DNA of 64,000 nucleotides from Acidobacteriota bacterium (GTDB lineage: Bacteria > Acidobacteriota > Thermoanaerobaculia > Gp7-AA8), in assembly GCA_039931435.1 (NCBI GenBank), contig JBDTRY010000001.1, positions 11,084 to 75,083 on the forward strand, read 5' to 3'. Positions 26,985 to 60,123 of this stretch are shown here, one piece after another (within the stretch, counting starts at the first letter, position 1; every line of letters begins with the position of its first letter). A model generated the notes under the pieces. It did not search any database and was not told the origin of the DNA. It saw only the letters and a list, made by a program, of their open reading frames with translations. The position numbers and the translations under genes are program-made.

Positions 26985-27848
26985 TCACGGCTTGACCGCC
27001 GCGTCCGGGAGCGCGTCCATCTCGTGAAGCGCACGACCCGCTTTCACGAGATTCGATTCGACGAGCCGCGACCCGGCCGGAACGGCCAGCAGGTCGGGCG
27101 GAACAAACTCACTCCCCACACGCACGATTGAGTTCCTGAACTGCAGGTGCTGGCCGGAGCGATCGAAACGAATGACGATCTCCAACGGCAAGCCGATCTG
27201 TTCAGCGTTCGAGGTGCTCTGCGCCGAGACCGGGCCATCCGGCGACCCTGCCGCGGTAAACACCGCCGCGGTGGAGATGCCGGGGGTGGAAGGGTAGGCC
27301 GAGCCTGTGAGAACTTCGATGGCCGGACGGGACAGCCTCATCGTCCGATCGAGGGTGATCGTCACGGTTCCCTCTCCGTTTGCCAGGGTAACCTCGAAGA
27401 CGTCGCCCATCCGTCCGGCGATCGATCGCGGAGGAGTGGTGGCCATCGTTCCCTGCAGTGGCTGGGACGAAGATTGCGCTGGCCGCGAGGTCATAGCGCG
27501 GCCAGCTGCAGCAATCAATTGAAACGGCGTCACGCTCCAGGTGCCGGAGCGACGGTCGATTTCAGTCAACTGGTTCTTTGCGTAATCGGCGATGACCACC
27601 CGCGATCGATCGCGTGAGACAGACACCACCCGGTCGGCCAGGCAGTACTCGTCGACGGCGTCGATTTTCCCCGAGAGCGAATCGGAGACTTCGCGGGTGA
27701 GGTGCAGCGGTGAAGGAAAGAGCGCAGGTGGTTCGCCGGCAGCGACGCCCGTGCCGGCCATAGCACCAGCCACGAGCACCATGCTCGCCAGTTTCGTGAG
27801 ACGAGACTTCCAGCACGTCGCGTCCCTGAGCGACTTTCGAGTCCGCAT
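26985..27848 (-). CDS. Hypothetical secreted protein (287 aa), immediately upstream of and co-oriented with giant gene A.
   Basis: ORF in track. N-terminus ...LASMVLVAGAMAGTGVAAG is signal-peptide-like (an alternative start at the internal Met is possible). No family recognised. Confidence 0.5.
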   Translation of the reverse strand: MRTRKSLRDATCWKSRLTKLASMVLVAGAMAGTGVAAGEPPALFPSPLHLTREVSDSLSGKIDAVDEYCLADRVVSVSRDRSRVVIADYAKNQLTEIDRRSGTWSVTPFQLIAAAGRAMTSRPAQSSSQPLQGTMATTPPRSIAGRMGDVFEVTLANGEGTVTITLDRTMRLSRPAIEVLTGSAYPSTPGISTAAVFTAAGSPDGPVSAQSTSNAEQIGLPLEIVIRFDRSGQHLQFRNSIVRVGSEFVPPDLLAVPAGSRLVESNLVKAGRALHEMDALPDAAVKP

Positions 27849-30257: not shown

Positions 30258-30875
30258 TTACCGGATTGACGGCAACTGCACCTTCAGTTCGACGTCGCCG
30301 AGGCGCACGAGGTCGCCGTCGGTGAGCGGTGTGGCCGTTTCGTCGAGACGCTGTCCTCCGATAAACGTGCCGTTCTTGCTGTCCAGGTCCTGAATGGTGA
30401 TCTGGCCGGAGTCATCGATGACGACCCGGGCATGTTCCCGTGAAACGGTCGGCGCTTCGATGACGATGTCCGCATCGGAGTCGCGGCCCAGAGTCGAGGC
30501 ACCCGGCGGCAGTGGCAGTCGATGCTTTGCCCAGATCAGGGCCGGTCCGCCGTCGTCGCCGGGAGCGACGTGCAGGCGTACCGGCCTTTCCATCACACGC
30601 AGGTACTCCCCTGTGGAGACCAGGTCCAGTCCGGAGTTCCCTGTCTCCAGCGTGGACCGCAGCTCATCGATGAGCATGTTGATGCTGGAGTCGAGCACGG
30701 GAGTCCCAGCCCATAGCTGGCGGCGGACGTCGTCCCGGGCCACGGGAGCGGGATGATTGGTCAGGATCATCTCCAGAACGTCGAGGGCACGAGGAGAGAG
30801 CGGCACGACCGCGTCGCCGCGGAGAAGAACCCCGCGCTCGAGATCGATCGTGTATCCGGCGAATTGCAACGTCAT
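30258..30875 (-). CDS. Transcriptional regulator with an N-terminal OmpR/PhoB-type winged-helix DNA-binding domain and a C-terminal FHA domain (EmbR-like architecture without the BTAD domain).
   Basis: N-terminus ...PLSPRALDVLEMILTNHPAPVARDDVRRQLWAG... (trans_reg_C-like). C-terminus TLGRDSDADIVIEAPTVSREHARVVIDDSGQITIQDLDSKNGTFIGGQRL (FHA). Confidence 0.75.
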   Translation of the reverse strand: MTLQFAGYTIDLERGVLLRGDAVVPLSPRALDVLEMILTNHPAPVARDDVRRQLWAGTPVLDSSINMLIDELRSTLETGNSGLDLVSTGEYLRVMERPVRLHVAPGDDGGPALIWAKHRLPLPPGASTLGRDSDADIVIEAPTVSREHARVVIDDSGQITIQDLDSKNGTFIGGQRLDETATPLTDGDLVRLGDVELKVQLPSIR

Positions 30876-41629: not shown

Positions 41630-42682
41630 TCATTCCTCGTGACAGAGACGATTGATCGCCGCGGTAATTTCGTGGAGAGGCAGCACGTGCTGCACCGCTC
41701 CCGTTCCAATGGCACCTCGGGGCATTCCAAAGATGATGGCCGTTTCCGCGGATTCGGCAATCGTCTTTCCTCCTCTGCCGCGGACAGTGCGGATTGCTTC
41801 GGCACCGTCCGCACCCATTCCGGTGAGAATGATGGCCAGCACGCGCTCGGCGCAGGCCCGGCTGGCGCTCTCGAAAAGCCGGTCGACCGACGGAGCGTAA
41901 AGATCGCCCTCCGCCGGTTCGTATATATCGAGCATCAGCCCGGCGCCATCCCTTCTGACCTCGGTCTGCATGCCACCGGGAGCGACGTAAACCGTTGCGG
42001 CACGGAGGCGTTCGCCATCCACACCTTCCTTGACCGTGTAGGAACTTATCCGATCCACCCGTTCCGCAAACAAGCGTGTGAATACCGCGGGCATGTGCTG
42101 GGCTACGACGAACGGCACATTGATGCGAGGAGTACGCTGAAACAGCGTCTGCAATGCTGGAGGTCCTCCGGTCGAAGCTCCGATGACGACGACATCCACG
42201 AGGAGTTTTAGCCCGCTCTCGGCCTGAGGGGCGAGCGGTAGCCCGGATGCCTGCATGCGCGCGGCAAGATTGTCGAGACGTACGTCGTGAGCCGCTCGAA
42301 CCTTCGCCAGAAGATCCTCACGAACCTCCTCGAGTCGTGGAGAGATCGGTCCTCCCGGCTTGACGATAAATTCGGCTGCGCCCAGCTCCAGAGCCTTGAA
42401 TACGGATTGCGCATCCGCTCTCGAGGACACGGCAATGACCGGCGTCGGTTGATTGGCCATGAGCCAGCGCAGGAATCCGAACCCGTCGATGCCTGGCATC
42501 TCGATGTCCAGAGTGATCACATCCGGTGTATGACGAAGGGTCTGCTTGATCCCCGATTCGCCATCGGCAGCGGTGGCCACGACCTTCACCTCGCCACTCG
42601 ACTCCAGCAGTCTGGAGATCGTCACTCGGTTGAAGGCGGAGTCGTCAATGACAATGGCGCGAATCATCCGGCGTTCGATCAT
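41630..42682 (-). CDS. cheB: Chemotaxis response regulator protein-glutamate methylesterase CheB (receiver + CheB methylesterase).
   Basis: N-terminal receiver (AIVIDDSAFNR...LDIEMPGIDG). C-terminal VVIGASTGGPPAL and HMP motif regions. Confidence 0.9.
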   Translation of the reverse strand: MIERRMIRAIVIDDSAFNRVTISRLLESSGEVKVVATAADGESGIKQTLRHTPDVITLDIEMPGIDGFGFLRWLMANQPTPVIAVSSRADAQSVFKALELGAAEFIVKPGGPISPRLEEVREDLLAKVRAAHDVRLDNLAARMQASGLPLAPQAESGLKLLVDVVVIGASTGGPPALQTLFQRTPRINVPFVVAQHMPAVFTRLFAERVDRISSYTVKEGVDGERLRAATVYVAPGGMQTEVRRDGAGLMLDIYEPAEGDLYAPSVDRLFESASRACAERVLAIILTGMGADGAEAIRTVRGRGGKTIAESAETAIIFGMPRGAIGTGAVQHVLPLHEITAAINRLCHEE

Positions 42683-43533
42683 CCTTTCTGGTAAACCATA
42701 TCGTGCTCAAGGTGACGAAGCCGGAACTGAGTGGAGAGGGTGATCAGGGACTCGGAATGACCGAGAAGCAAATAGCCGCCCTCGCCGAGCCGTTCGTGAA
42801 AGCTGGCAATGACACTGCGCTTGGAGGCATCATCGAAATAGATAATGACGTTGCGACAGAAAATGATGTCCACCGTGCCCACCAGCGACACCCGTGGATG
42901 ATCGTAAAGGTTGAGCCGCCCGAATGACACCCGTTTGCGGATGGCGTCGGAGATCTGCCAGGTGCCGTCCGGCTCTCTGACGAAATACTTCTCGCGCAAC
43001 TCTGGGGTCGTAGCTCTGAACGAGTTCTCGCGATAGCGGCCCTTTCGCGCCCGAGCCAGAACCTGCTGGTTGATGTCGGAGGCAAAAATCTCGAAGGAAC
43101 CACGCTCGTAGTGACCGTGCTCGGTCAGAAGCATGGCGATGGTGTAGGGCTCCTCACCCGAGGAGCAGCCGGCCGACCAGATTCGCACCTTGCGTCCCCG
43201 GGCTCTGGACAGCACTTCCGGAACAATCTCCAGGGCGAAGGCCGAGAGCTGCATCGATTCACGGAAGAAGTAGGTTTCGTTCGTGGTGATCTGGTCGAAG
43301 ATCCGATCGAATTCTCCATCGGCTCGCGGGTCGTACTGGAGAAAGTAGTAGTACTTCTGGAGGGTGTCGAAGTTCAGCTCGCGAGCGCGGGGGGAGAGCC
43401 GCTTCTGAAGCAGGTACTTCGAAGAATCGGCGAAGTAAATTCCGCTGCGGGCGTAGATGGCGTCGCGAAGCTGCCGGAAAACGTCGTCCGGCAGGTCCAG
43501 CTGATGGTTCAGGGTGAAGTCGAAGGCGCCCAT
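42679..43533 (-). CDS. cheR: Chemotaxis protein methyltransferase CheR.
   Basis: TNETYFFRE, RIWSAGCSSGEEPYTIAML SAM-binding motif. 4-bp overlap with cheB. Confidence 0.9.
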   Translation of the reverse strand: MGAFDFTLNHQLDLPDDVFRQLRDAIYARSGIYFADSSKYLLQKRLSPRARELNFDTLQKYYYFLQYDPRADGEFDRIFDQITTNETYFFRESMQLSAFALEIVPEVLSRARGRKVRIWSAGCSSGEEPYTIAMLLTEHGHYERGSFEIFASDINQQVLARARKGRYRENSFRATTPELREKYFVREPDGTWQISDAIRKRVSFGRLNLYDHPRVSLVGTVDIIFCRNVIIYFDDASKRSVIASFHERLGEGGYLLLGHSESLITLSTQFRLRHLEHDMVYQKG

Positions 43534-43554
43534 GGGAGTGTGGGAAAAGGAGAG

Positions 43555-45795
43555 TCAGTGCACCGAGGCGCTTTCTTTCATGGCCTGTAGAGTTGCAGCG
43601 ATGAGCGCTTCGTGCCGGCTGTCGGCGGTTCTCCATGCCTGCTCGAGCTGATCGCGGAACAGGTCTTTGCGGCGGACGAAGAGCTCGAGGATGTCGTCGA
43701 GGATGGAGCGATTCTCGAGTGCTCGATAGAGATAGCTGAAGGAGCTGCGATCGGCCAGTTTTCCCAGCGCTACCACCGCCGAGTGCTGAACGTATGTGTC
43801 GGCGTCGCCGACGAGCAAGGCGTGAATTTCCTCGAGCGCCCGTTCATCGCCGCGCTGGCCGAGGGCCAGAACGCCGGCGGCCCGCAAACGCCATTCGTCA
43901 GAATGCAGGCAGCGCAGCAGCTCACGGAAAATCTCGTCTCCGGGAATCCGGGACAGTGCCAGAATCCCGGCGCGGCGAATCTCCAGGTCTCGGGCATGAA
44001 GGCTGGAGAGCAACTGATCCGCGGCGCGCCGGCTGCCGATTTTTCCCAGCGCCTCGATGGCGGCGATCTTCACCGGAGCAGGATCGCTCTCGAGGTGCGC
44101 GATGAGGGGATCGATGGCCACCGGGTCCCGATACTCGCCCAGGGCGTTTGCCGCTGCCGTTCGAATCCAGAGATCCTCATCCTCGAGGGCGCTGATCAAC
44201 GGCTCGATCCCGTGACTGGGGCGCAACAGGACGATGGCCTGAATGGCAGCGATTCGCACCGAGGTCGCTTCGTCCGCCAGCGACAGCACAAGCTGATCAG
44301 CGAAACGCTCCTCGCTGAACCTTCCCATGAGCGAAACCGCCTTCTGACGGATGGCAGGGTCGCCATCCTTGGACGCCAGCAGCAGTTCCTGCGGAAATCC
44401 TTCTCCCTGGATGTTCACAAAGATCGAAAGCGAATTGACCTTCACCGGTGTGGTCCCGGCGGCCATCAGTCTGCGGATCTTCCCCAGTAATTGCGGCTTC
44501 ACCTGCGGAAAGGCAGCGACGAGGGCGCATACGGAATCCACCGCGGCCTGCTGACAACCGGGGTCGCCGTCGTCGAGCTTAGCCAGCAGGTAGTCGATTG
44601 CCGAGGGGTCGCCCAGTTGTCCCAGACTCTCCAGGGCCAGGCGGCGGATCATGGCACTGTCGTGATCGATGAAGCCAATCAGCGTAGGCACCGCTTCGTT
44701 GCCGGCGGTCAGGTTGACGACCCGAAGGAGAATGGCCGTCACCTCGTCCTCTTCCGTCGAACGCAGCTTGTTCAGAACAGACATCGATGCCGCGGGTCCG
44801 AAGTCGACGAGCGCCTGAGCCACGACCTCCGCGCTCTCCGGATCCTCGAGGGAGTCGAGCAGAACGGGTACAGCGCGATCGTCGCCGGTCCACCCCAGGA
44901 TCTGGAGGATGAAGTTCTTTACGTCGCGCTTGGGAGTGGAATGGAGATGCTCGACGAGCGGCACGATCTTCTCGCTCGGAAACGCTTCACGAAACTTGCG
45001 CTGAATCAATTGCCTTTCCATTGCCTGGACGATGCGAGGCTTGTCCGCTTCAGCGACTCGAATCAGGGCTCGCAAAGCGGTGAGGTTCAGTTTCTCTTCC
45101 TGGGAAATGATTCTGAGAAGAAAGCTGACTGTTCCCACGTCTCCGATCTTGGAGACCGCTTCGAGAATCGGCTTTCGCAGCGACTTCTCCGAATACAGGG
45201 GAAGAATGGAAGGCAGAGCCGTGCGATCTCCAATCTCGCCAAGAGCCTCGATCACGTGGAACTTCAGCCAGAGGTCCGGTGACTGCAGTGTCTCCAGCAG
45301 CGGGCCGATGGAACTGGCGCGGCGGTACTTGCCCACCGACGACACCACGGCCGAGAGAAGATTGATGTCCGATTCTTTTCGCAGGAACGCCAGGAGTGTT
45401 TCAAAACCGTCGTCGTTCCGCAGATCGCCCAGAAGATTGATCAGGGCCAGACGTACGTCGACGTCATTTCCCCGGCCGAGCTCGAAGATAATGAATGGCA
45501 CCGCTCCGTCACCCACCCTGATCAATGCCTCGGTTGCGGAATTTCTCTTTCCGGCATTGGCGGGGTCGTGCAGAGAATGAAGAAGGCGCAGCAACACTGT
45601 TTCCCGGGGATTGCTGAGAATTCCATCCACGACGGTTTTTCGCACGCGCCAGTCGCGGTCGCCCAGCAGTTCGAAAAGCAGAGGGAGATCCTCGTCCGTC
45701 ATCGAGCCGGCCACCTGCATGGCGGCCTTCTGACGCACGTCGGCGTTCGCCGATCGCGCCCGCTCCTGCACGTGCCCTTCAACGCTCATCGACAA
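43555..45795 (-). CDS. HEAT-repeat (PBS-lyase-type) protein, 746 aa, embedded in the Che-like cluster.
   Basis: Reiterated ...DWRVRKTVVDGIL..., ...DPSAIDYLLAKLDDGDPGCQQAAVDSV..., ...RIAAIEALGKIG... HEAT/PBS-lyase-like units throughout. Confidence 0.7.
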   Translation of the reverse strand: MSMSVEGHVQERARSANADVRQKAAMQVAGSMTDEDLPLLFELLGDRDWRVRKTVVDGILSNPRETVLLRLLHSLHDPANAGKRNSATEALIRVGDGAVPFIIFELGRGNDVDVRLALINLLGDLRNDDGFETLLAFLRKESDINLLSAVVSSVGKYRRASSIGPLLETLQSPDLWLKFHVIEALGEIGDRTALPSILPLYSEKSLRKPILEAVSKIGDVGTVSFLLRIISQEEKLNLTALRALIRVAEADKPRIVQAMERQLIQRKFREAFPSEKIVPLVEHLHSTPKRDVKNFILQILGWTGDDRAVPVLLDSLEDPESAEVVAQALVDFGPAASMSVLNKLRSTEEDEVTAILLRVVNLTAGNEAVPTLIGFIDHDSAMIRRLALESLGQLGDPSAIDYLLAKLDDGDPGCQQAAVDSVCALVAAFPQVKPQLLGKIRRLMAAGTTPVKVNSLSIFVNIQGEGFPQELLLASKDGDPAIRQKAVSLMGRFSEERFADQLVLSLADEATSVRIAAIQAIVLLRPSHGIEPLISALEDEDLWIRTAAANALGEYRDPVAIDPLIAHLESDPAPVKIAAIEALGKIGSRRAADQLLSSLHARDLEIRRAGILALSRIPGDEIFRELLRCLHSDEWRLRAAGVLALGQRGDERALEEIHALLVGDADTYVQHSAVVALGKLADRSSFSYLYRALENRSILDDILELFVRRKDLFRDQLEQAWRTADSRHEALIAATLQAMKESASVH

Positions 45796-45931
45796 CCACG
45801 TCTGCTGATCGATAGTGTGAAGAAATCGCCGGCCGCTTTGGAGGAATGGTCCGAGCTGCCGAAAGCAGACGGGCCTGCACCGGGAAAGCGATCAGTGGAG
45901 CGCACCTCCGGAGATTCAATGGCCATGAACA

Positions 45932-46651
45932 TCAGTTCTCATCCTGCAGAACGCGGTCCACGTTCAGAAGCATGATCAACTCCCCCTCCCGCCGGAATAC
46001 GCCCCGGATCCTGCCACTCTGCTCTGCCGAAATAAGCGCCGGTTCCTGCCGGGTCTCGGAACTGCTCACTGAGGTTACCCTTCCGATGCGGTCGACGATG
46101 AACCCTGATCGTCCGGCTATCTCTTCCACGATGAGAAAGCGGGAGTCCGAACTCTGCCTTGCCTCCCGGTGGCCAAGCCTGCTGCTGACATCAAGAATCG
46201 TCACGATTGTACCGCGCACGGAGATGATCCCCAGCACGTCAGGCCGGGCGTTCGGGACGCGAGTGATCTCGCGGGGCTCCATGATCTCGGCGATGTCCGA
46301 GACCGGGAGCGCAAACTGCTCGGTCCCGATCATGAAGGTCAGGATTTCCATCTGGTCACTCGAAGTCTCGGAGGCCACCTCGACGTCGGCGATCGCCGCC
46401 GCCCGGGCCTGGCGCGCCAGGACGTCCTGCTTGAAGCGATCGAGGCGGGACACGGGCTGCGGCTCGATCTGTGATTGTTCGACCTCCGGCTTCGTCGATT
46501 CCTTCGATTTCACAGGCGATAACGCAGCAGATCGGGATGGCTCGACGGGCTCAGAGGAACGTGACGATGACGGGAGCGCAGAGGCCGCAGCTGCCGCATC
46601 GCGCTCTTTCTTTTCGCGGGCCTTTTTCCGGATCTTTACGAGATCGACCAT
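45932..46651 (-). CDS. cheW: CheW-like coupling protein with a roughly 110-aa low-complexity N-terminal extension.
   Basis: EILTFMIGTEQFALPVSDIAEIMEP...VLGIISVRGTIVTILDV...LLNVDRVL CheW-domain motifs. Confidence 0.75.
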   Translation of the reverse strand: MVDLVKIRKKAREKKERDAAAAASALPSSSRSSEPVEPSRSAALSPVKSKESTKPEVEQSQIEPQPVSRLDRFKQDVLARQARAAAIADVEVASETSSDQMEILTFMIGTEQFALPVSDIAEIMEPREITRVPNARPDVLGIISVRGTIVTILDVSSRLGHREARQSSDSRFLIVEEIAGRSGFIVDRIGRVTSVSSSETRQEPALISAEQSGRIRGVFRREGELIMLLNVDRVLQDEN

Positions 46652-47466
46652 CAGCGATCCTCCTTCGCTCCGAGGCGGTGCTCGGCCGCGGAAGATCGGA
46701 TCCGTGCTCGATCGATGTTCGTGGCATCGTCACCGAAGGCATCGAGGAGCGCGGTCGTGGCCACGGCGTTGATCAGTCGGGGAACACCTCCGGTAAGGCG
46801 ATGAAGGAGATCGAGTGCTTCCGCTTCAAAGGGATTTCTGCTCCCGCCCGCCACGCGAATGCGGTGATCCACATACTTCGCGGTTTCGTCGGGTTCCAGG
46901 GCGTGAAGCCGGAAGCGGATTCCAATTCGTTGCCGCAGGGCCTCGTATTGGGGACGGTCCAGGCGGTCATCGAGTTCGGGCTGTCCGATGAGAACGACTG
47001 ACATCAGATTCTGATCGTCGAGCTGAAAGTTCGTCATCAATCGGATCTCGTCGAACGCGGCCCGGCCCGGGATGAGTTGCGCTTCGTCGATGATCAACAA
47101 GGGATGGCGGTCCTGCTCGTGCAATTCGTAGAGGCGTTCGTGGATGCGGTCCAGCAATGCGGCACGCGTACGATCGGCGGGCAATTCCAGCCCCGAGGCG
47201 ATGGCGCGCAGAAGCTGCGCTGGAGTGAGACGAGGGTTGATGAGGAGGATAACGGGGCGCGAGTCGCCGACCCTGTCCACCAGAGCACGGGAAATGGTCG
47301 TTTTCCCGCATCCGATTTCTCCGGTGAGAAGAGCGAGCTCATTTTCCTCCACGGCGTACTCGAGCCGAGCCAGCGCCTCTCGATGCTGTCCGGTCTCGTA
47401 CAGAAAAGAAGGGTTCGGGGTTTTTCCGAACGGCTTTTCCCTGAATCCGAAGAACTCGCAGAACAG
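46651..47466 (-). CDS. ExeA/GspA-like AAA ATPase (AAA_22); start uncertain. The track ORF begins at a GTG at 47352, but homology extends upstream to a CTG at 47466 immediately after the cheA stop.
   Basis: GEIGCGKTT Walker A, LIIDEAQ Walker B. Upstream in-frame sequence LFCEFFGFREKPFGKTPNPSFLYETGQHREALARLEYAV matches the canonical ExeA N-terminus (M..FFGL.EKPF..TPDP.F....HREAL) as I recall it. No ATG/GTG/TTG lies between the in-frame TGA (47472..47470) and this region. Confidence 0.6.
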   Translation of the reverse strand: MFCEFFGFREKPFGKTPNPSFLYETGQHREALARLEYAVEENELALLTGEIGCGKTTISRALVDRVGDSRPVILLINPRLTPAQLLRAIASGLELPADRTRAALLDRIHERLYELHEQDRHPLLIIDEAQLIPGRAAFDEIRLMTNFQLDDQNLMSVVLIGQPELDDRLDRPQYEALRQRIGIRFRLHALEPDETAKYVDHRIRVAGGSRNPFEAEALDLLHRLTGGVPRLINAVATTALLDAFGDDATNIDRARIRSSAAEHRLGAKEDR

Positions 47467-47469
47467 ACT

Positions 47470-49461
47470 TCACCTCCGGGAGACCGCGGTTCGACTTTCA
47501 CGCCGCGCCGTTCGCGCTTCCGCCAGGCCGGAGACGAGAGAGGCGACGTCGACGACCAGGGCGATCTGGTTTTTCCCGATCTCCGTTGCTCCGGCAATTC
47601 CGGGAATGCCCCGAATGCGATTACCGACCGCCCGGATCACCACTTCCTGTTGCCGCACGACTTCATCGAGCACCAGTCCGGCCAATCGATCGCCGAGACG
47701 TACCACGGCAACGAACTTTCTGCCGTTCTGTGAGGACGCTTCGACTCCGTAGGCGTCGGAGAGACGGAGGAGCGGAATCTCCGCATCACGCAGCGCCAGA
47801 ATTTCCCGGCCTTCGACAGTTGTGATCTCTTTCTCCTGGATCTTCACCACCTCGCTGATCGACGTCAGAGGAAGGGCGAAGGTCTCGTTTCCGACACGCA
47901 CCAGCAGTGCGTGCAGGATGGCCAGAGTGATGGGTAGTGTCAATCGAATCGTCGTTCCACTTCCCCGATCACTGAGCACCTCGATCGAGCCCTTCAGCTC
48001 GTGAATATTCTTGCGCACCACGTCCAGACCCACCCCTCGGCCGGACACCTCGCTCACCGCCTCGGAGGTGGACAGGCCCGGCGAAAAGATCAGTTCGCGC
48101 GCTCTCTCGAAATCGACGACCTCATCCTGGCCGATGAGATTGCTGCGAACGGCGGAGCGGCGAACGGACTCCACGTCGATTCCCTCGCCGTCGTCCGAGA
48201 TATCGATGATCACGAAGCTTCCCTGCTGGTAGGCTCGTATACGCACTTCCCCTTTCACGGGCTTTCCTGCCGCCACTCGCTTCTCGGAGGTCTCGATCCC
48301 GTGATCGATGGCGTTGCGCACGACGTGCATGAGGGGATCGGCCAGTTCTTCGATCATGACCTTGTCCAGCTCAGTCTCGCCGCCGGCGGTGAGCAGTTCG
48401 ATTTCCTTCCCCAGCTCTTCTGCTGCCTTGCGGGCCGCTCTTCCCACACGCGTGTAGAGCTGTGAGATCGGAACCATCCTCAGGTCGACGATGGCACGCC
48501 GGAGTTGATTCAGTCGCCGCTCGAGATCTCCGGAGATGCGTCCCAGCTCCCGAGCGGTTCTTCGGTCCAGGGAGGATCCGGATACGGCAATGAGCTCGTC
48601 CAGTCTGGCTTTTTCCAGGATCAACTCCCCGACAACATCCATGACGTTATCCAGCCGGGAGATATCTACGCGGACGTTCTGCGACAAGGAACGAATGCTG
48701 GCCAACCCCTCTTCGCCGTCGGGTGAGCGAGGTTCCGGAGCAGACTGTAAGAGACGAACCTGTGCCTCCGGCGAGAGCGCCACCAGCTCTTTCCCGGAGA
48801 GGAGCGCTCCGACCAACAGCCGAAATCCGATTCCCGCTCCCGCGGCGGTGGGCAGAGTGGAGATGACCTCGCCTTCGGCGTTGAGGCGCGCGGTCAGGGC
48901 CCGCAGTTTCTCGTCGAAGTCCAGAAAGTCGTACTGGACCGTGAGCGAAAAAATGCTTCGGCCGATCCGCACATTTTCCTGGAGTCTGTATTCCTCATAT
49001 TCGGTCAGTGACTTGCGCGTCTGGGCATCGAGATCAAGGCCGGCGAGCAGATCGGCCTTTTTGCCAGTGGGATCCCCGGCGGCCGCCCTTTCGATCCTTT
49101 CCAGGATCTCCCTTCGCTCCCCGGTCTCCGCTCCGCTGGAAGCTGCCGAAACCATCCGTATCAGTTCGGCGTGGCAATCGAGCAACAGCGCGAGAAGTTC
49201 GGACGAGACCTGCACCTTGCCAAGACGAAGGCGGTCCAGAAGATCCTCGAGTTGGTGAGTGAGCGTTGCCAGACCTGTGAAGCCCAGCATTCCTGCCAGC
49301 CCCTTCAGAGAATGGATGGCGCGGAAGATATCGTTGATGATGGCCGGACTTACCGTGCCCCGTTTTTCATCGAGCTCGGCGAGATCAACGGCAAAGGACT
49401 CGAGCAGCTCTTCGGCTTCGGATGTGAATTCGCGCCGGGCCCGCTCCTCTTCTTTCTCCAT
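47470..49461 (-). CDS. cheA: Chemotaxis histidine kinase CheA.
   Basis: Hpt (AIHSLKGLAGMLGF), dimerisation, HATPase (DDGEGID, GRGVGLDVV) and C-terminal CheW-like domain. Confidence 0.9.
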   Translation of the reverse strand: MEKEEERARREFTSEAEELLESFAVDLAELDEKRGTVSPAIINDIFRAIHSLKGLAGMLGFTGLATLTHQLEDLLDRLRLGKVQVSSELLALLLDCHAELIRMVSAASSGAETGERREILERIERAAAGDPTGKKADLLAGLDLDAQTRKSLTEYEEYRLQENVRIGRSIFSLTVQYDFLDFDEKLRALTARLNAEGEVISTLPTAAGAGIGFRLLVGALLSGKELVALSPEAQVRLLQSAPEPRSPDGEEGLASIRSLSQNVRVDISRLDNVMDVVGELILEKARLDELIAVSGSSLDRRTARELGRISGDLERRLNQLRRAIVDLRMVPISQLYTRVGRAARKAAEELGKEIELLTAGGETELDKVMIEELADPLMHVVRNAIDHGIETSEKRVAAGKPVKGEVRIRAYQQGSFVIIDISDDGEGIDVESVRRSAVRSNLIGQDEVVDFERARELIFSPGLSTSEAVSEVSGRGVGLDVVRKNIHELKGSIEVLSDRGSGTTIRLTLPITLAILHALLVRVGNETFALPLTSISEVVKIQEKEITTVEGREILALRDAEIPLLRLSDAYGVEASSQNGRKFVAVVRLGDRLAGLVLDEVVRQQEVVIRAVGNRIRGIPGIAGATEIGKNQIALVVDVASLVSGLAEARTARRESRTAVSRR

Positions 49462-49462
49462 G

Positions 49463-49840
49463 TCAGGTAGTCACCCCCAACAGCTTTCTCAGTTTCTCCA
49501 GCAGGTCACGCTCCTGAAATGGCTTGACCAGATAATCCTCGGCGCCCAGTTCCATGGCCCGGCGGCGGTCTTCCTCGGACTTTTCGGTGGATATAACCAT
49601 GATGGGGACGGTACGGTAGACGCCGTGATTTTTCAGAAAGCTGACCAGCTCCAGCCCATTGATGTCCGGCATGTTGATGTCGGTAAGGATTGCGCTGAAG
49701 GCATGGTGCGGGAGGAGTTTCAGTGCTTCGAAGCCGCTCTCCGCCTCGAAGATTTCCAGGTCCACCATGGCCTCCTGTTCGATGAGATTCGTCAGGAAAG
49801 CGCGCATCGAAGGTGAGTCCTCAACGACCAGTATCTTCAT
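49463..49840 (-). CDS. cheY: CheY-like single-domain response regulator (125 aa).
   Basis: KILVVEDSPSMRAF...AILTDINMPDINGLEL...DYLVKP. Confidence 0.9.
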   Translation of the reverse strand: MKILVVEDSPSMRAFLTNLIEQEAMVDLEIFEAESGFEALKLLPHHAFSAILTDINMPDINGLELVSFLKNHGVYRTVPIMVISTEKSEEDRRRAMELGAEDYLVKPFQERDLLEKLRKLLGVTT

Positions 49841-51546
49841 AACAAATCCTCGTGACGGCCCGAGCGCAACCTCGTCCCCGATTCCAGAGCCCGCCCGGCC
49901 TGTGAGAGGAAAACCTCGAGGGCTCCCAGCTCACGCATTGGACTCCTGTGTACACCATTGTCTCCATAAAAGACTCCGGCCACACCCTCTCCCGTTCCTA
50001 TGGGAAAAACGGCCACGTCGGTCGGTTGCGCGCTCCCAAGTTGCGAAATGAGCGTGACATTGGCCTCCGTCCGGTGAAGCTTCCCACGGTGTGAGCGGCC
50101 CGAAGCTAGCACTTCGCTGAGGACGGAAGGATCGGATCGGGCAATCCTGAGCTTTCGTACCCGTTCGTTGACTTCATCGCCATCGCCTGAGGGTCCGAAG
50201 CCGGCCGCCCCGACAAAGAACTGCCCCTCGGGCAGAAACACCGCGCCGCGATCGAGGAACTCGCTGGCCACCCGCAGAAGGATCTGCGCCACCGACTGCA
50301 CGTCCTGATCGGCCGTCAACTCCGTGATCAGACTCTCGAGGAGCGAGCAGCGCCGCTCCATGAGGTCGTGCCGGGCATCCTCGAAGAATCTCTGTCCGGC
50401 ATCCTCCACTCCGGCCGTCAGCAGGTAGTTCGCCCAGTCCGACATCGCCGTGGCAACGAAACCCGACAAACGCTGCAGAAGTGCGGAGGGATCGGCCCAT
50501 GCTGACTCGGATTCAGGGACGACCAGATCCAGGTGCGGGTCGAACATGGGAATGGCCGCGGCCACTTCAAAGTCTCCGAAGAGAATGCCAATGGGCAGAC
50601 GGTGATTCGCCTCCTTCACCAGTCGCAGAAGGCCGACCGAACGTCTGTCGTTCTGCACATCGGCCACGGTGACGAAGTAGCGGCGGTCGTCGATCAGTCT
50701 CTGGATCTCGGCCCGCGCCTCATCGATGGCCGAAAACTGCCGTACTTCGGTACCGCCGGCCGACAGCGTTCTGCGCAATGCCACGCGGATGCGTGCGTCG
50801 GGCTCGAAGACGACCACCGCCGCGCCTGCACCGGCGTTCTGCTGGCGCACGGTGAAGCGGGCCTCTCCAATCAGCGCTCCGGTACTGGGGTCGACGTAGG
50901 CATCGGCGGGCTTTGCCGGAGGCGCTTCGGCCGAACGGGATGCACTGAAAATCCGGTCGGCGAAGGAGTTCTCCTGATGAGCGGCGTCCGTGCGAGGGGA
51001 AGGCCCCCGCAGAAAATCGCTTCCGGCGCGCATCCGCTCTTCGAGCCCGGCCAGCGGTTTGACTTCGGGAGCGGCCAGAAAATGCTGGGGCGCAAAGCCG
51101 CCGGAGGGAAGCCGCTGCTCGTCGTATTCCAGTTCGTCCGCGCCACCCGACTCGGAGAGGACGAACCTGAATTCGCCTCGGGCCGAAGCCAGCAGAGGAG
51201 TGACTACCGACGAAATCCAGCTTTCGATCGCCTCCGCAGGGGCCAGCTCCGGATCCTCGTTCTGGCCGTGGGCACGGAGGAAGCTCCTCAGATCGGCACG
51301 ATCCGAAGCACCCGCGGCGACAATCAGCCCCCTGGAGATGGTGATTGCAGAGAGCCGCTCCCCGTCGCGAATCTCCAGGGTCCCGGAGCGGCGACTGAGG
51401 TGAACGATCTGAAGGATGTCCCCGAGAGAAAGATCCTCGAGCCGGCCGGCGAGGCTCATCCCAGTCTCCCGGAAGCCGCTCGCCACCACGCCACAAGATT
51501 CACCCGATCCCCCAACTCGACTCGGACTGAAAGGCAGCTGTCCCAT
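49837..51546 (-). CDS. DUF4388 (PATAN-like) domain protein with a long C-terminal region of unknown function, 569 aa.
   Basis: N-terminus LEDLSLGDILQIVHLSRRSGTLEIRDGERLSAITISRGLIV is typical of DUF4388. 4-bp overlap with the preceding cheY. Confidence 0.5.
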   Translation of the reverse strand: MGQLPFSPSRVGGSGESCGVVASGFRETGMSLAGRLEDLSLGDILQIVHLSRRSGTLEIRDGERLSAITISRGLIVAAGASDRADLRSFLRAHGQNEDPELAPAEAIESWISSVVTPLLASARGEFRFVLSESGGADELEYDEQRLPSGGFAPQHFLAAPEVKPLAGLEERMRAGSDFLRGPSPRTDAAHQENSFADRIFSASRSAEAPPAKPADAYVDPSTGALIGEARFTVRQQNAGAGAAVVVFEPDARIRVALRRTLSAGGTEVRQFSAIDEARAEIQRLIDDRRYFVTVADVQNDRRSVGLLRLVKEANHRLPIGILFGDFEVAAAIPMFDPHLDLVVPESESAWADPSALLQRLSGFVATAMSDWANYLLTAGVEDAGQRFFEDARHDLMERRCSLLESLITELTADQDVQSVAQILLRVASEFLDRGAVFLPEGQFFVGAAGFGPSGDGDEVNERVRKLRIARSDPSVLSEVLASGRSHRGKLHRTEANVTLISQLGSAQPTDVAVFPIGTGEGVAGVFYGDNGVHRSPMRELGALEVFLSQAGRALESGTRLRSGRHEDLL

Positions 51547-54543: not shown

Positions 54544-55992
54544 TTATCTGAATTCCGGAGGGACGACTTGCGCGAACCCGGTACGGGTCTGATATCGATT
54601 GGCGACACCAAGCAGACGGCCCTCGGAAAAATGTGGACCCATGATCTGCAGCGACAATGGAAGACCATTGTCGGTGAAGCCCGAAGGAACGGCCACAGCA
54701 GGAATGCCGATCAGATTCGCCGGCGCTGTGAAAATGTCGGAAAGGTACATGGCCAGCGGATCGCTGGTCTTCTCGCCGATAAGGAACGCCGGTCCGGGAG
54801 TGGTGGGGGTGAGCAGACAATCCACCTGCGACAGAGCGCTGGCGAAGTCGGTACGCATGCGCTGGCGGACGCGCTGAGCCCGTCCGTAGTACGCGTCATA
54901 GTAGCCGGAGGACAACGCAAACGTGCCCAGCATGATCCGTCGCTTTACCTCGGGGCCGAATCCCTGACCTCGTGAGTTTCGATAGAGCTGCTGCAGGTCC
55001 GAGGAATCTGCACTGCGGAACCCGTATCGCACCCCGTCGAATCTGGACAGATTTGCGCTGGCTTCGGCGTTGGCCACGACGTAGTAGATGGCGATGGCCG
55101 AAGAGAGTATGGGCAGGCTGATCTCCTCTACGACCGCCCCCTCGCTGCGAAGGACCGTCAGGGCATCGTTGAAGTTGTCACGCACCTCCGTAGAGAGGGA
55201 CGCCAGGGCTTCGCGAACTACTCCGAATCGCAATCCGCTGATGTCGTTGTCGATCGCCGCAACGTAGTCCGGGACAGGTTCCCGGCTGGAGGTGGAGTCG
55301 GCCGGATCGTGGCCCGCTATTTCGCGGAGGATCCAGGCGCAGTCCGCGGCGGTTCGCGTGACGATCCCGATCTGATCGAGCGACGAGGCAAAGGCCACCA
55401 GTCCCGAGCGGCTGATCCGCCCGTAGGTCGGCTTGAGGCCTACGACACCACACAGCGCCGCCGGCTGCCGTACAGAGCCTCCAGTTTCCGAGCCGAGGGC
55501 GGCGGGGACAAGCCGTGCCGCTACCGCTGCAGCAGATCCTCCTGAGGAACCCCCTGCTACCCGCTGCAGGTCCCAGGGATTCCGCGTCACGCCGAATACC
55601 GAATGCTCCGTGGACGAGCCCATGGCGAATTCATCGAGGTTGGCTTTCCCGGCTACGAAAGCCCCGGCGCCTTTCAACTTCCCCACGACTGTGGAATCGA
55701 CGGGTGATTGAAACGCGCCCAGTATGCGCGAACCGCAGGTGGTGGGTTCGTCGCGCGTGACGATGTTGTCCTTGATTGCGAATGGAACTCCGGCCAGCGA
55801 TCCTGACGTCGTTGCCGAGGCCCTGGCGCGCGCCTTTCCCTCGTCAAAATGAATCAATGAATGAAGACGGCTCTCGTGTTCGCGAATTCGCCCGAGCCAG
55901 AGTTCTGCATAACGGGCCCGTTCGAGGCTGCCCGCGCCGATGGCCGCCGACACCTCAGAGAGACTCGACCCGAAGAAATCATCAGTGCTCAT
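54544..55992 (-). CDS. gatA: Glu-tRNA(Gln)/Asp-tRNA(Asn) amidotransferase subunit A.
   Basis: Amidase signature GGSSGGSAAAVAA...GSETGGSVRQPAALCGVVGLKPTYGRISR. Confidence 0.9.
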   Translation of the reverse strand: MSTDDFFGSSLSEVSAAIGAGSLERARYAELWLGRIREHESRLHSLIHFDEGKARARASATTSGSLAGVPFAIKDNIVTRDEPTTCGSRILGAFQSPVDSTVVGKLKGAGAFVAGKANLDEFAMGSSTEHSVFGVTRNPWDLQRVAGGSSGGSAAAVAARLVPAALGSETGGSVRQPAALCGVVGLKPTYGRISRSGLVAFASSLDQIGIVTRTAADCAWILREIAGHDPADSTSSREPVPDYVAAIDNDISGLRFGVVREALASLSTEVRDNFNDALTVLRSEGAVVEEISLPILSSAIAIYYVVANAEASANLSRFDGVRYGFRSADSSDLQQLYRNSRGQGFGPEVKRRIMLGTFALSSGYYDAYYGRAQRVRQRMRTDFASALSQVDCLLTPTTPGPAFLIGEKTSDPLAMYLSDIFTAPANLIGIPAVAVPSGFTDNGLPLSLQIMGPHFSEGRLLGVANRYQTRTGFAQVVPPEFR

Positions 55993-56282
55993 TCGCCACC
56001 GATGATGCGAGGGACGACGAAGAATCCGTTGGAGAACGATGGCGCATTTCCCGCGACCGCAGCCGTTGGCAGCGAGGGCGTCACTTCGTCTTCGCGGAGA
56101 ACTGGTAGCGAAAGCGCCATCTCCGGCTCCGGCTCCGGCGGTGCCAACTCGATCGCTTCCAGCTGGGCGATGTATTCGAGAATGGACGAGAGCTCGCCAG
56201 CCATCGAGGTGATCTCCGCGGGGCTCAACTCGATGTGAGCGAGCGCAGCGATTCGCGTTACTTCGTCGGAATCGATTTTCAT
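55989..56282 (-). CDS. gatC: Glu-tRNA(Gln) amidotransferase subunit C (97 aa from the ATG at 56282; the track ORF extends to 56357).
   Basis: MKIDSDEVTRIAALAHIELSPAEITSMAGELSSILEYIAQL matches the GatC N-terminus. 4-bp overlap with gatA. Confidence 0.8.
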   Translation of the reverse strand: MKIDSDEVTRIAALAHIELSPAEITSMAGELSSILEYIAQLEAIELAPPEPEPEMALSLPVLREDEVTPSLPTAAVAGNAPSFSNGFFVVPRIIGGE

Positions 56283-56514
56283 GAGCTTCAGTAACTCTCT
56301 TTCCCGTTCCCCGTCCGTCACCCGATCATCAGGACCGGGAACGTCGCAGGGCAGCATGACATGCGGCGGGCACTTTTCGAGAATGATGAACTCGAACTCC
56401 GACGTCCGCGGAGGGAAAGCAAAGGTGCCAGCCGCACCGCGTGGGGACCGGCGAGATGCGCGTCACCGTCGCCATTGACGATGACTCTTTACAGGCCTCT
56501 CGAGGGCAGAGGAG

Positions 56515-56739
56515 TCAGGCCAGATCTGCGAGCTTGTCGAGAATTTCCTGTTCGCTGGGGAATCGCCCTTCGTCATGTTTCGAGAAGATTGTCGTCCCGC
56601 CTGATTCGACCCTGAATACGCCGCCGCGGCCACGGGTCAGGGTAGCATCCACATCGAATTTCTTTTTGATCGCGGCCGCCAGACTGGAGGCTCTCGGGTA
56701 GTAGTTTCAAACGACGCAGTATTCGATCTGGACGTTCAC
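56515..56739 (-). CDS. SelW/Rdx-family selenoprotein (74 aa) with an in-frame UGA (Sec) codon at 56709..56707. Invisible to the ORF track.
   Basis: GTG at 56739 (GAGGAG 6 nt upstream; GTGA overlap with the PP2C stop) gives MNVQIEYCVV-U-NYYPRASSLAAAIKKKFDVDATLTRGRGGVFRVESGGTTIFSKHDEGRFPSEQEILDKLADLA*. The IEYCxxU...GGVF.V..G..IFSK...GRFP pattern is the SelW-like/Rdx signature with Sec in the CxxU redox motif. Confidence 0.65.
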
Positions 56740-57506
56740 GCGTTCTCCTCGATCATTCGCACCACCACTGCGGTGATGTTGTCATATCCGCCGTGTTCGT
56801 TCGCCGAATCGACAAGTTGACGGCAGGCCGTCTGGAGATCCTCAGCCCCGGATACGATCTCCAGAATCTCCCGTTCGGAAACCATGCCGGTCAATCCATC
56901 CGAACAGAGAATGTACAGATCGCCGGCCAGGCATTCTATCTCCCGCACTTCGGGGAGCACCTGAAGCGACCCGCCCAGGGCCCGGGTGATCACATTGCGT
57001 AAGGGATGATGCTGCGCTTCTTCCTCGGTGAGGATGCCAGCCTCGATCTGTTCGAAGACCCAGGAGTGATCGTTCGTGACCCGCGACAGTTTGCCATCCC
57101 GAATCAGATAGCCGCGCGAGTCACCGAGGTGAACAAACGAGGCAACTTTGCCGTTGACGCCTGTGGCCACGACGGTCGTTCCCATGCCTCGCAAGGCCGG
57201 GTCCTGACGCATGGCCTCGAGGACCTTCGTGTTGGCAAGCTGAAAGGCCGCCAGAAGCCGGTTCGTACAGCGGCTCAGGGTCTCATCGTAAGCGTGGGGC
57301 CAGGTGCCGTCGGCATCCTCGTCCGGCTGGACCATGAAGTCCGCAATGGAGTCCACGGCAATTTTCGAGGCGACCTCTCCTGCGGCATGACCTCCCATGC
57401 CGTCAGCGACGACGAAGCATTGCGCCTCCGGTTCGACCCGGAAGGAGTCCTCGTTGTGCTGGCGCTGTCTGCCAACGTCACTAAGTCCGAACGCCTCGAT
57501 CCGCAT
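56736..57506 (-). CDS. PP2C-family Ser/Thr protein phosphatase (256 aa).
   Basis: LSDVGRQRQHNEDSF...VVADGMGGHAAGEVAS...GDSRGYL...LCSDGL PP2C motifs. Confidence 0.88.
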   Translation of the reverse strand: MRIEAFGLSDVGRQRQHNEDSFRVEPEAQCFVVADGMGGHAAGEVASKIAVDSIADFMVQPDEDADGTWPHAYDETLSRCTNRLLAAFQLANTKVLEAMRQDPALRGMGTTVVATGVNGKVASFVHLGDSRGYLIRDGKLSRVTNDHSWVFEQIEAGILTEEEAQHHPLRNVITRALGGSLQVLPEVREIECLAGDLYILCSDGLTGMVSEREILEIVSGAEDLQTACRQLVDSANEHGGYDNITAVVVRMIEENA

Positions 57507-57511
57507 TCACC

Positions 57512-58159
57512 CTAACCCTTCTTGAAGAGATCCCGGAACCTGCCGGTAGATTCGCCTTTGCTCTGGCGCAGTTCCGCAAGAGCCTGTTTCACGTCGGTGC
57601 TGGTCTGATCCCATTTCAAGGCGTCTTCGAGATACCGCTCTGCCTTCGCTGTCAATCCTGCCCGCTTGCAGAGTAAACCTGCCGCTTTCAGATATACAGG
57701 ATTGTACGGCTCGAGTTGCACGGCACTCTCGATGGCCTGGACTGCCTGCCGCATCATGTCGGGGCTGCGCGTGGAAGCCATGGAAAGGTAGTGAAAGGCT
57801 TTGGGATCGCTGGGATTGTGTTTGACGGCCATATCGAAGTCTTCGCGTGCGGCAGCGAAGTGTCCTTCGTTATAGGCCTTCACACCTTTGGCCAGATAGG
57901 CCCTGGCGATCTGCAGAGGATCCGTCGAGGACTTGGCCGAGCCCGGCAGTTCCTTGTCGTGCTGCCGGCGCCGATCAGGATTGGTAAGAATGTTCACCGC
58001 CTCTGTCAGGGTCTGAAAGAGTTTTTCCACGTCACCCTTGTTGCGGCCTTTATAACGGTCGGGATGGTGCTCCCGGGCCAGTTCGCGAAAACGCTGACGA
58101 ATCTGCGCTTCGGAGGCGCCACGGTCCACGCCCAGAATTTCGTAGTAGTTGACTTTCAT
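57512..58159 (-). CDS. J-domain (DnaJ-like) protein with C-terminal TPR repeats (215 aa).
   Basis: YYEILGVDRGASEAQIRQRFRELAREHHPDR with HPD motif. TPR-like C-terminal half. Confidence 0.8.
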   Translation of the reverse strand: MKVNYYEILGVDRGASEAQIRQRFRELAREHHPDRYKGRNKGDVEKLFQTLTEAVNILTNPDRRRQHDKELPGSAKSSTDPLQIARAYLAKGVKAYNEGHFAAAREDFDMAVKHNPSDPKAFHYLSMASTRSPDMMRQAVQAIESAVQLEPYNPVYLKAAGLLCKRAGLTAKAERYLEDALKWDQTSTDVKQALAELRQSKGESTGRFRDLFKKG

Positions 58160-58168
58160 AGTCCCTAA

Positions 58169-59263
58169 TCAATGCCTGGCGCGTAGCTCTCCGACTCTTG
58201 CTGCAGTTTTCCTGATGGTATCCGACACGTTCCGATCTTTGGCCAGGAACCGCAGATCCTTCAAGGTTAGACGATTGACGAGTGGTAGAGCAACGCCTAT
58301 CGGCGTCTTTGAATTGCGAACGAGCGCCAGAACGATGGGATACTTTGAGGTCCAGGTGCGATTCGTGGCGATGACGCGGAGCACCTCATCATCGACGTTG
58401 CGCAGTTGTGCGAACCCCTCAATCTCCGAATCCGAGCACCTTCCGTTGCGTAGAACCGCGGAAGAGACCAGCTTGTTTCGATCGCGGACGAGGATGTTTC
58501 GCTCCGGCCTGCCACCCTTATATGCGCACTTGATCCGCTGGGCCACACTCATAGCCAGAATACGATTGAAGACCGGGAGATTGTCCGGAGCGACACCCTC
58601 CATGGGAATGGCGGCCGGCTCCTCTCCGTCGACAGACTCAGCGGTGGCTCTCTCAAGCAGATCGGCGATCTGCTGTTTGTCCTCGTCGCTGAGCTCGTCG
58701 AGCTCTTCCTCGACCTCCTGCCTGATGGCCTCGAGACGGGCCTTCTTTTCGAAAAACTCTTCCCGGACCTCCAGGGCCCGCCGGCGAATGTGGCTGGACA
58801 ACTGGGGGTTCCGGAGCAGGGCTTCGAGAATATCGGGATGACGGATGATCCGCTCTTCGTTGATGACGATCACTTCCTGAAGATACGGAGTTACTGTTCG
58901 TGCCAGCGAGGCCACCGTTTCATCGGCCGTGATTCGGTTGCGAAGGACTGCTTCGATGATCGCGGGATCGCTGGCAGCGAACGCCAGCCTGTCCAGTCCG
59001 ACGGATTCAGCCAATTCGCTTCTGGCATAAGCGAGCACGATTTTTGCCGGCAATTCGTTGAGCGTCTGCCGCGCTGTAGTGACAATCTCCTCGTCGTCAC
59101 CGCCGGCAAGGAAGGCCAGGACGGCCACGACGTCGTCCTGAGGGAGGGGGAGCAAACCCTTCGCTGCATAGATGACGAACTCTCGAGGGAGCGACCCCTC
59201 CACAACCCTCTGAACGATCGAAGATCCCGACAACTCCAAAACAGGAGGAGCGGTCCCGGGCAT
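58169..59263 (-). CDS. Hypothetical protein (364 aa), alpha-helical repeat-like.
   Basis: ORF in track; no family recognised. Confidence 0.45.
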   Translation of the reverse strand: MPGTAPPVLELSGSSIVQRVVEGSLPREFVIYAAKGLLPLPQDDVVAVLAFLAGGDDEEIVTTARQTLNELPAKIVLAYARSELAESVGLDRLAFAASDPAIIEAVLRNRITADETVASLARTVTPYLQEVIVINEERIIRHPDILEALLRNPQLSSHIRRRALEVREEFFEKKARLEAIRQEVEEELDELSDEDKQQIADLLERATAESVDGEEPAAIPMEGVAPDNLPVFNRILAMSVAQRIKCAYKGGRPERNILVRDRNKLVSSAVLRNGRCSDSEIEGFAQLRNVDDEVLRVIATNRTWTSKYPIVLALVRNSKTPIGVALPLVNRLTLKDLRFLAKDRNVSDTIRKTAARVGELRARH

Positions 59264-60123
59264 CAGCGAACTCCGCTCGCGGGACCGAGGGTGATAACCG
59301 ACGTGCGGTCGAAGATCCGATCGTGGACCACGTCGCCGCGACGGCCCAGTGGCATGAGCGCCTTACCGTTCAGTTCCAGCGTCAGGCCTCCGGCGTTTCC
59401 TATCGTTGCAAATTTGAACTCGTTCTGCGCCTGAAAGGACTTTTCGTCGCCCGCGGAAACTTCCCCGGTAAGCACGGCTCGCCCGTCAGCCTGCAGGTCC
59501 ACCCAGGTGTTCTCCGTGGCACGGATGGTCAGAGAAATCGGCGCTGTGCTGGAAGGCCTCGTGGACGGCGAGACAAACGGCGATGCTGCAGGAGTGGCGC
59601 TGGTAGCGGTATCGGCGCCGGAGGCCGTGAGCGGCGCCGCCGACACTTCGGCGACCGGTGGCTTCGGAACAAAATTCGTTTTAGGGCGGTACATGGAATA
59701 CCAGATCGCCGCCGCTGCCAGAGCGAGGATGATGAACGCCACAATGATGATGATTGCGTTCCGCCGCACCCGTTCGCGGCTCTCTCTCAATTTCTGCAGA
59801 GCGGCGCTGTCGTTGGAGATGAGAGGCGTCGGCATCTCATTGATTCCCTTGCGCGCCGAGCGCTCGAAGAAGACGTACCGATCGACCATCTCCTCCGGAT
59901 TGAGACCGAGATAGCGAGCATAGGCCCGCACGAATCCCCGGGTGAATGCGGGCGCCGGCAGAGCGCTGAATTCATTGCGCTCGAGCGCTTCCAGAAAGCC
60001 CTTCCGGATTTTGGTGGCCTCCGCGATTTCCTCGACGGAAATCCCTCGGATCTCACGCTCTTTCCGAAGTTCTTCTCCGAAAGAATTCGTAGCCTGCCTC
60101 TGGGGCTCTTCAGGTTCAGCCAT
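59263..60123 (-). CDS. rodZ: RodZ-like cytoskeleton protein (N-terminal XRE-type HTH, transmembrane segment, C-terminal DUF4115-like domain).
   Basis: GEELRKEREIRGISVEEIAEATKIRKGFLEALE (RodZ HTH). Hydrophobic IIIIVAFIILALAAAAIW. Ser/Pro-rich linker and C-terminal beta-rich domain. Confidence 0.7.
   Translation of the reverse strand: MAEPEEPQRQATNSFGEELRKEREIRGISVEEIAEATKIRKGFLEALERNEFSALPAPAFTRGFVRAYARYLGLNPEEMVDRYVFFERSARKGINEMPTPLISNDSAALQKLRESRERVRRNAIIIIVAFIILALAAAAIWYSMYRPKTNFVPKPPVAEVSAAPLTASGADTATSATPAASPFVSPSTRPSSTAPISLTIRATENTWVDLQADGRAVLTGEVSAGDEKSFQAQNEFKFATIGNAGGLTLELNGKALMPLGRRGDVVHDRIFDRTSVITLGPASGVR

Follow-up and report, generated by a model that had tools for sequence, protein, structure and literature searches.

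SelW-like proteins are a long-known family of bacterial selenoproteins with an NCBIfam model of their own. In Sargasso Sea data they formed the most abundant selenoprotein family, represented by 48 genes, and a 2006 count gave 10 Sec-containing members in sequenced bacterial genomes (PMC1088965; PMC1794560). Annotation often misses SelW genes completely (PMC4607533). The described bacterial members (NF041051 SelTWH_Campy and TIGR02174; surveys by Zhang and Gladyshev) are approximately 70–80 aa long, carry an N-terminal CxxU motif, and contain a SECIS element within the ORF, right after the UGA. These features recur in a gene on the minus strand of the 64-kb stretch of DNA analyzed here (hereafter, the window), and in this sense the gene is an ordinary member of the family. 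It differs from the described members in coming from an Acidobacteriota metagenome-assembled genome (MAG), in barely passing the Campylobacter-derived equivalog cutoff of NF041051 (88.3 vs 88 bits), and in being paired, within its clade, with a gene for a PP2C-family phosphatase.

Bacterial Rdx proteins with Cys in place of Sec are represented by several solved structures (2FA8 Atu0228, 2OJL, 3DEX, 2OKA, 2OBK, and 2P0G). They are approximately 25–30 residues longer as deposited and lack a SECIS element, and we know of none with an established biochemical function. Mammalian SelW (2NPB) and MIEN1 (2LJK) belong to the same Rdx family and share its thioredoxin-like fold, with CxxU or CxxC placed between β1 and α1. 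The SECIS of eukaryotic SelW resides in the 3′-UTR and operates with SBP2 and eEFSec, unlike the in-ORF hairpin that operates with SelB. In E. coli fdhF, the minimal SECIS consists of 17 nt folded into a hairpin, GGUUGCAGGUCUGCACC, whose loop nucleotides G23 and U24, together with a bulged U, contact SelB. The SECIS elements of SelW, SelD, and Fdh resemble this minimal element, and bacterial SECIS elements have been described as hairpins of 5–6 bp (PMC4607533) with a small apical loop that contains a G (PMC1088965) and lies 16–37 nt from the UGA (PMC10778597).

The reading frame and its family

Translation of the minus strand from 56739 to 56515 yields VNVQIEYCVV, a UGA codon, NYYPRASSLAAAIKKKFDVDATLTRGRGGVFRVESGGTTIFSKHDEGRFPSEQEILDKLADLA, and a terminal stop (TGA, 56517..56515), which together make up a coding sequence of 74 codons plus stop. 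The preliminary description had proposed a 74-codon frame at this place whose sole internal UGA falls at the CxxU position, and exactly such a frame is present. The UGA is codon 11 (56707..56709) and is read here as Sec (U11); three codons earlier lies an invariant Cys8 (TGC, 56716..56718), giving the motif C8-V-V-U11, in which Cys8, the likely resolving cysteine, corresponds in the alignment to the leading Cys of the CxxC motifs of 2fa8 and 2ljk. Translation would begin at a GTG codon (56739..56737), 5 nt downstream of a Shine–Dalgarno-like GAGGAG (56745..56750, minus strand) located within the 3′ end of the PP2C gene. In nearly all homologous loci the start codon likewise lies exactly 10 codons ahead of the UGA, commonly behind GGAG or GAGG. 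The 63 codons past the UGA stay open, and the family motifs GGVF.V, IFSK, and GRFP are all kept.

We consider it very likely that the locus, part of an Acidobacteriota MAG with Thermoanaerobaculia as relatives, holds an intact gene that has escaped annotation and encodes a SelW-like (Rdx) selenoprotein of 74 residues. Gene callers miss it because its active-site Sec is encoded by a UGA "stop".

Profile searches, for which Sec was entered as Cys, placed the protein in the Rdx (SelT/SelW/SelH) family. The match to Pfam PF10262 (Rdx) was far above chance level (E=1.9e-18; 66.8 bits, cutoff 22.6) and extended over profile positions 1–73 of 74, in agreement with the SelW/Rdx membership suggested beforehand. 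The NCBIfam models TIGR02174 (CXXU_selWTH; 55.5 bits, cutoff 34.2) and, marginally, NF041051 ("SelT/SelW/SelH family (seleno)protein") were also matched above their curated cutoffs. The domain is thus covered in full, with CxxU directly after β1. Seven PDB entries were retrieved as sequence relatives (2ljk, 2fa8, 2ojl, 3dex, 2oka, 2obk, and 2p0g), all with CxxC aligned to CxxU; MIEN1 (2ljk) gave the best match (E=8.8e-8), and the Cys-type bacterial proteins gave E-values of 3e-7 to 1e-3. A redox-active motif has been described for MIEN1 (PMC3527542).

The fold was modeled on P0001, a Sec-type homolog that is 58% identical without gaps and serves as a proxy for the protein of the window. The model (pLDDT 91.8) comprises β1 (residues 3–8), α1 (14–28), three further strands, and then C-terminal helices, with the CxxU motif between β1 and α1; a thioredoxin-like βαβββα fold is therefore predicted for this proxy. 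Its top 21 PDB matches are all SelW-related Rdx crystal structures (TM 0.85–0.92, rmsd 1.1–1.8 Å). The Cys-type bacterial structures named above superpose on it at TM 0.87–0.92 and rmsd 1.1–1.7 Å, and the match to mammalian SelW and MIEN1 is weaker (TM 0.63–0.76); MIEN1, mouse SelW, and then thioredoxins come later among the matches.

The UGA column and the downstream hairpin in relatives

TGA occupies the Sec column in all 16 other Sec-type genes (L001–L010 and L038–L043), each of which has an intact IEYC segment upstream of it. The sources of these genes, namely Acidobacteriota, Cloacimonetes, Gemmatimonadetes, Longimicrobiales, Anaerolineales, and unassigned metagenome contigs, span at least five lineages, and related genome loci with TGA at this exact column were found in four MAGs (Cloacimonetes, Gemmatimonadetes, Longimicrobiales, and Anaerolineales). 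Such a distribution points to an ancestral codon rather than a fresh mutation. Database protein homologs give a different impression: 10 of the 12 (P0003–P0012) are N-truncated calls that begin just past the Sec column, and the remaining two (P0001 and P0002) are recorded with W at that column. For nine of the 12 the DNA was read, and an M-x-[IV]-x-I-x-Y-C-x-x-TGA segment was found intact upstream in every case. The main value of the present case lies in annotation. Relatives are mostly stored either as N-truncated proteins or with Trp wrongly assigned to the Sec residue; small selenoproteins are known to be missed systematically by gene callers, and this locus is one more example.

A further 29, more distant, metagenome loci carry a Cys codon at the Sec column. 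These Cys-type relatives were obtained with a scan pattern that demanded a real Cys codon at this position, and they served as a control set. Homologs with Cys and homologs with Sec at the UGA column, for which the preliminary description had proposed a check, are accordingly both at hand (16 TGA and 29 Cys loci). Compared in this way, the UGA aligns with Cys in homologs, is conserved among orthologs, and is flanked on both sides by conserved coding sequence, a combination that suggests a Sec codon. On two soil metagenome contigs, Cys-type and TGA-type Rdx copies stand in tandem (L009, 265..850; L010, 431..960); the Cys-type copies read CVVC or CVLC and the Sec-type copies CGM-TGA, forming a natural Sec/Cys paralog pair.

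Comparison with relatives also identified a SECIS-type hairpin at 56675..56691 on the minus strand (GCCUCC-AGUCU-GGCGGC; GCCUCCAGUCUGGCGGC), 17 nt in length, with a stem of 6–7 bp that includes a U·C mismatch. The stem begins 16 nt past the UGA, close to the distance of about 15 nt given for a SECIS-like hairpin in the preliminary description, and the element is conserved among relatives. The UGA and the apical loop (AGUCU/GUC), which holds G56684 and U56683, are separated by 21 nt. When the U of the UGA is numbered 1, the hairpin covers positions 19–35.

Past the UGA, the Sec-type genes are all co-linear. In an alignment of 15 sequences, 90% of the pair cells hold standard pairs, compared with 29–59% in controls with the 3′ arm shifted by 1 to 3 columns; because the structure was itself derived from the same sequences, this comparison is biased in its favor. 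Changes on both sides were seen at three of the six stem pairs: pair 22–32 is U·C in nine sequences including the window, G–C in three, U–A in two, and A–U in one, and locus L004 swaps three stem pairs (AUU/AAU) with the hairpin kept. This covariation is modest, as the sequences are related and it comes largely from L004 and the one variable pair. Loop nucleotides G26 and U27 are invariant in all 15 aligned sequences. Part of the nucleotide conservation in the hairpin could stem from the conserved peptide ASSLAA; U27, for its part, is a synonymous site, and every Sec-type gene has either AGU (Ser) or GGU (Gly) as its loop codon, although AGU is rare, at only 8.5% of Ser codons in the window; synonymous sites nearby vary freely.

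The Cys-type control set differs in the same region. GU is found at positions 26–27 in 16/16 Sec-type genes versus 2/22 Cys-type genes in the same codon register, and the median minimum free energy of the 17-nt hairpin is −6.2 kcal/mol in the former versus −2.9 kcal/mol in the latter (Mann–Whitney p=1.9e-4). With the register fixed, hairpin energies range from −5.4 to −11.6 kcal/mol among Sec-type genes and are positive for most Cys-type genes. A similar hairpin persists in the Cys-type exceptions L009, L010, L014, and L036, which seem to have undergone Sec-to-Cys conversion recently. In L014, L016, and L017 (around 5007..5260 in L014) and in L036 (2644..2900), the Cys-type Rdx genes have a SECIS-like hairpin with a GU loop, which looks like a fossil SECIS element left after such a conversion; beyond 'KGTNGV', the genes of L014, L016, and L017 no longer follow the family, as though a frameshift had occurred.

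Folding downstream of the UGA, as proposed in the preliminary description, gave no sign of unusual stability: the 63 nt after the UGA fold at −9.7 kcal/mol, with z=+0.46 relative to shuffles. Single-sequence energy is uninformative here, and the case for the hairpin comes only from comparison with relatives. Rfam yielded no match, either for the whole window at gathering thresholds or in a permissive search of 56200..56800.

The element resembles the fdhF hairpin in being a short hairpin just past the UGA with a small G–U apical loop; it is likewise 17 nt long, shares GUCUG, and has an unpaired U on its 5′ arm. It differs in that its loop G–U lies 3 nt (one codon) farther from the UGA (26–27 vs 23–24) and in that its unpaired U belongs to a U·C mismatch, whereas that of fdhF is bulged. 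SelB binding is a prediction for the element in the window. With conservation in register, compensatory changes, and an invariant loop G–U, the hairpin fits the description of a bacterial SECIS, and its geometry, as read from the sequence, fits the published limits cited above.

Proposed selenocysteine decoding and other readings of the UGA

In the proposed mechanism, SelB–GTP–Sec-tRNA(Sec) would bind the 17-nt hairpin, with the G–U in its small apical loop, and Sec would be inserted at codon 11 in place of termination. The product would be a minimal thioredoxin-like protein (β1, CxxU loop, α1, β2–β4, α2), in which Cys8 and Sec11 would cycle between a reduced form and a selenenylsulfide, and it may act as a thiol/selenol oxidoreductase on some partner. 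The intact, conserved gene and its putative SECIS indicate that the organism decodes Sec. Such decoding is plausible, given that selenoproteins have been reported in Acidobacteria (three families, four proteins; PMC1794560, Table 2), and it predicts selABCD elsewhere in the genome of this Acidobacteriota MAG.

Genes for selA, selB, selD, and tRNA-Sec were found neither in the 64-kb window nor in any fetched flank. tRNA scans of the window and 15 loci gave no tRNA-Sec; Pfam and NCBIfam searches for selA, selB, and selD among approximately 30 window ORFs gave chemotaxis, cell-envelope, and housekeeping genes instead; and a scripted search of the window for a second gene with an in-frame UGA returned only adjacent-gene and antisense artefacts. 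The lack of Sec machinery within 64 kb would suit a pseudogene in which the active-site Cys codon (TGC/TGT) mutated to TGA, leaving a 10-residue peptide, or in which Sec decoding was lost and the gene is decaying. Such an origin would also suit the unexceptional energy of the hairpin and the absence of the gene from the protein collection, in which no match at or near 100% identity to the Rdx protein was found, though the neighboring GatA is present (MEO8215475.1, 100% identical). We nevertheless regard a pseudogene as quite unlikely. A decaying gene would hardly share its TGA with 16/16 relatives from several lineages, keep its post-UGA frame open with all family motifs (Pfam coverage to profile position 73), and retain its start codon and Shine–Dalgarno sequence, and the hairpin sequence is identical in L006, L008, and L043.

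The Sec reading must also be weighed against decoding of the UGA as a standard amino acid (Trp, Cys, or Gly), through reassignment or near-cognate read-through. The W recorded for P0001 and P0002 might seem to speak for this; in the DNA, the position is a TGA that was translated as Trp in both (L005, 892..1113; L038, 597..821), an artefact of gene calling, and the P0001 record runs through its own terminal TGA as well ('...GARW'). TGA terminates 12 of the 16 confident genes in the window and is therefore the normal, main stop codon there, on which ground reassignment was rejected. The position is moreover that of the catalytic residue of CxxC/CxxU, where Trp or Gly would be non-functional, and the conserved hairpin is specific to TGA-bearing genes. 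Taken together, decoding as a standard amino acid is highly improbable.

It is just as improbable that one of the conventional, stop-free ORFs listed at the locus (a 45-aa minus-strand fragment, 56515..56652, with a GTG at 56652, and two ORFs, 84 and 86 aa long, on the plus strand) is the real gene, even though database homologs P0003–P0012 are annotated as similar N-truncated products, since in the DNA the conserved IEYC..TGA segment directly precedes every one of those truncated entries and the plus-strand ORFs are antisense to a strongly supported gene and have no Pfam match. The 45-aa ORF was rejected as a true product because it covers only positions 35–73 of the Rdx profile and lacks β1, the redox motif, and α1. 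The 86-aa ORF, which the preliminary description had already called spurious, exists at 56441..56701 and was rejected for want of a Pfam match.

The PP2C neighbor and the surrounding genes

The gene upstream of Rdx (56736..57506, minus strand) encodes a PP2C-family Ser/Thr phosphatase (Pfam PP2C_2, E=2.9e-16; PP2C, E=2e-10) that is 67% identical to its counterpart in L006. Its stop codon (TGA, 56738..56736) overlaps the Rdx start in a GTGA at 56739..56736, an overlap of 4 nt, and the GAGGAG precedes it at 56750..56745, both as first described. With the overlap and an internal ribosome-binding site in place, Rdx is probably co-transcribed and translationally coupled with the PP2C gene.

The gene order is RodZ-like (59263..60123), a 364-aa protein that has no Pfam match (58169..59263, minus strand), DnaJ/TPR (57512..58159), PP2C, Rdx, gatC, and gatA. 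This order recurs in L006 and, as far as Rdx, in L043, so that Rdx would form the distal gene of a conserved block running from the RodZ-like gene through the 364-aa protein, DnaJ/TPR, and PP2C. Both L006 and L043 have a counterpart of the 364-aa protein at this place in the order (355 and 368 aa, respectively), marking it as a conserved member of the block. The next labeled relatives of GatA are Thermoanaerobaculia proteins with 64–68% identity.

A PP2C gene lies upstream of Rdx in all six members of the clade of the window, and directly so in L006, L039, L040, L041, and L043. The spacing varies, from a 1-nt overlap in L040 to gaps of 6 nt in L041, 14 nt in L006 and L043, and 115 nt in L039. 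The more distant Acidobacteria MAG L008 has a gene for an FAD-binding oxidase, rather than PP2C, upstream of Rdx. Flanks scanned in other lineages contain a response regulator/kinase (L001), CsgG/TPR and PFK (L002), PFK (L003), and CobU and a tRNA synthetase (L004); beyond close relatives, adjacency of PP2C and Rdx was thus absent in L008 and in these four loci. The co-expression of the two genes that the preliminary description drew from their overlap therefore stands in part: the adjacency is kept in the clade and an operon is a reasonable reading, but the overlap itself is not conserved and the pairing does not extend to L008 or to the four other lineages. Since PP2C stands beside Rdx within the clade only, the arrangement amounts to clade-level synteny, which is compatible with an operon and is no evidence of shared function.

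The cited bacterial selenoprotein literature yielded no description of a PP2C–Rdx pairing. Its conservation in the clade is the only mildly new element of the locus and would matter only with a demonstrated functional link; as synteny at the level of one lineage, it offers a small lead on the function of bacterial SelW-like proteins. That the SelW-like protein is a dedicated redox partner of a Ser/Thr phosphatase module in this Thermoanaerobaculia-like clade is a speculative, and on balance unlikely, proposal. If true, selenium or redox status would be wired into phospho-signaling, e.g., by Sec-dependent reduction or oxidation of PP2C or its substrates, and the module would constitute the first defined physiological partner for bacterial SelW-like proteins.

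On the other side of Rdx, the longest gatC ORF (55989..56357, minus strand; 122 aa, ATG at 56357) is probably over-extended. As the GatC domain begins at residue 44 and homologs are 92–96 aa long, the likely start is the ATG at 56282, which leaves a 232-nt spacer (56283..56514) between the Rdx stop and gatC. This spacer folds no better than shuffles (z=−0.19), and a terminator search within it gave one hairpin (56438..56424), within chance expectation. The stop codon of Rdx and the start codon of gatC overlap in L008 and L041.

Other genes for Ser/Thr phospho-signaling on the minus strand of the window, besides PP2C, encode an FHA and Trans_reg_C protein (30258..30875) and an 859-aa Pkinase and TPR protein (34933..37512). 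In L008, a large Pkinase gene lies approximately 3 kb downstream of Rdx-gatCA. A chemotaxis-like cluster (41630..51546, minus strand) comprises CheB, CheR, a 746-aa HEAT-repeat protein, CheW, an AAA_22 ATPase, CheA, a single-domain response regulator, and a DUF4388 protein. The first part of the window (1..27034) is taken up by two giant tandem ORFs, which probably encode huge surface or adhesin-like proteins. One, at 10469..27034 on the minus strand, spans 5521 aa with CarboxypepD_reg, LVIVD-repeat, Big_6, and beta-propeller domains; the other, at 1..10521 on the same strand, is an open frame of at least 3507 aa that runs off the window start and contains a Big_5 domain.
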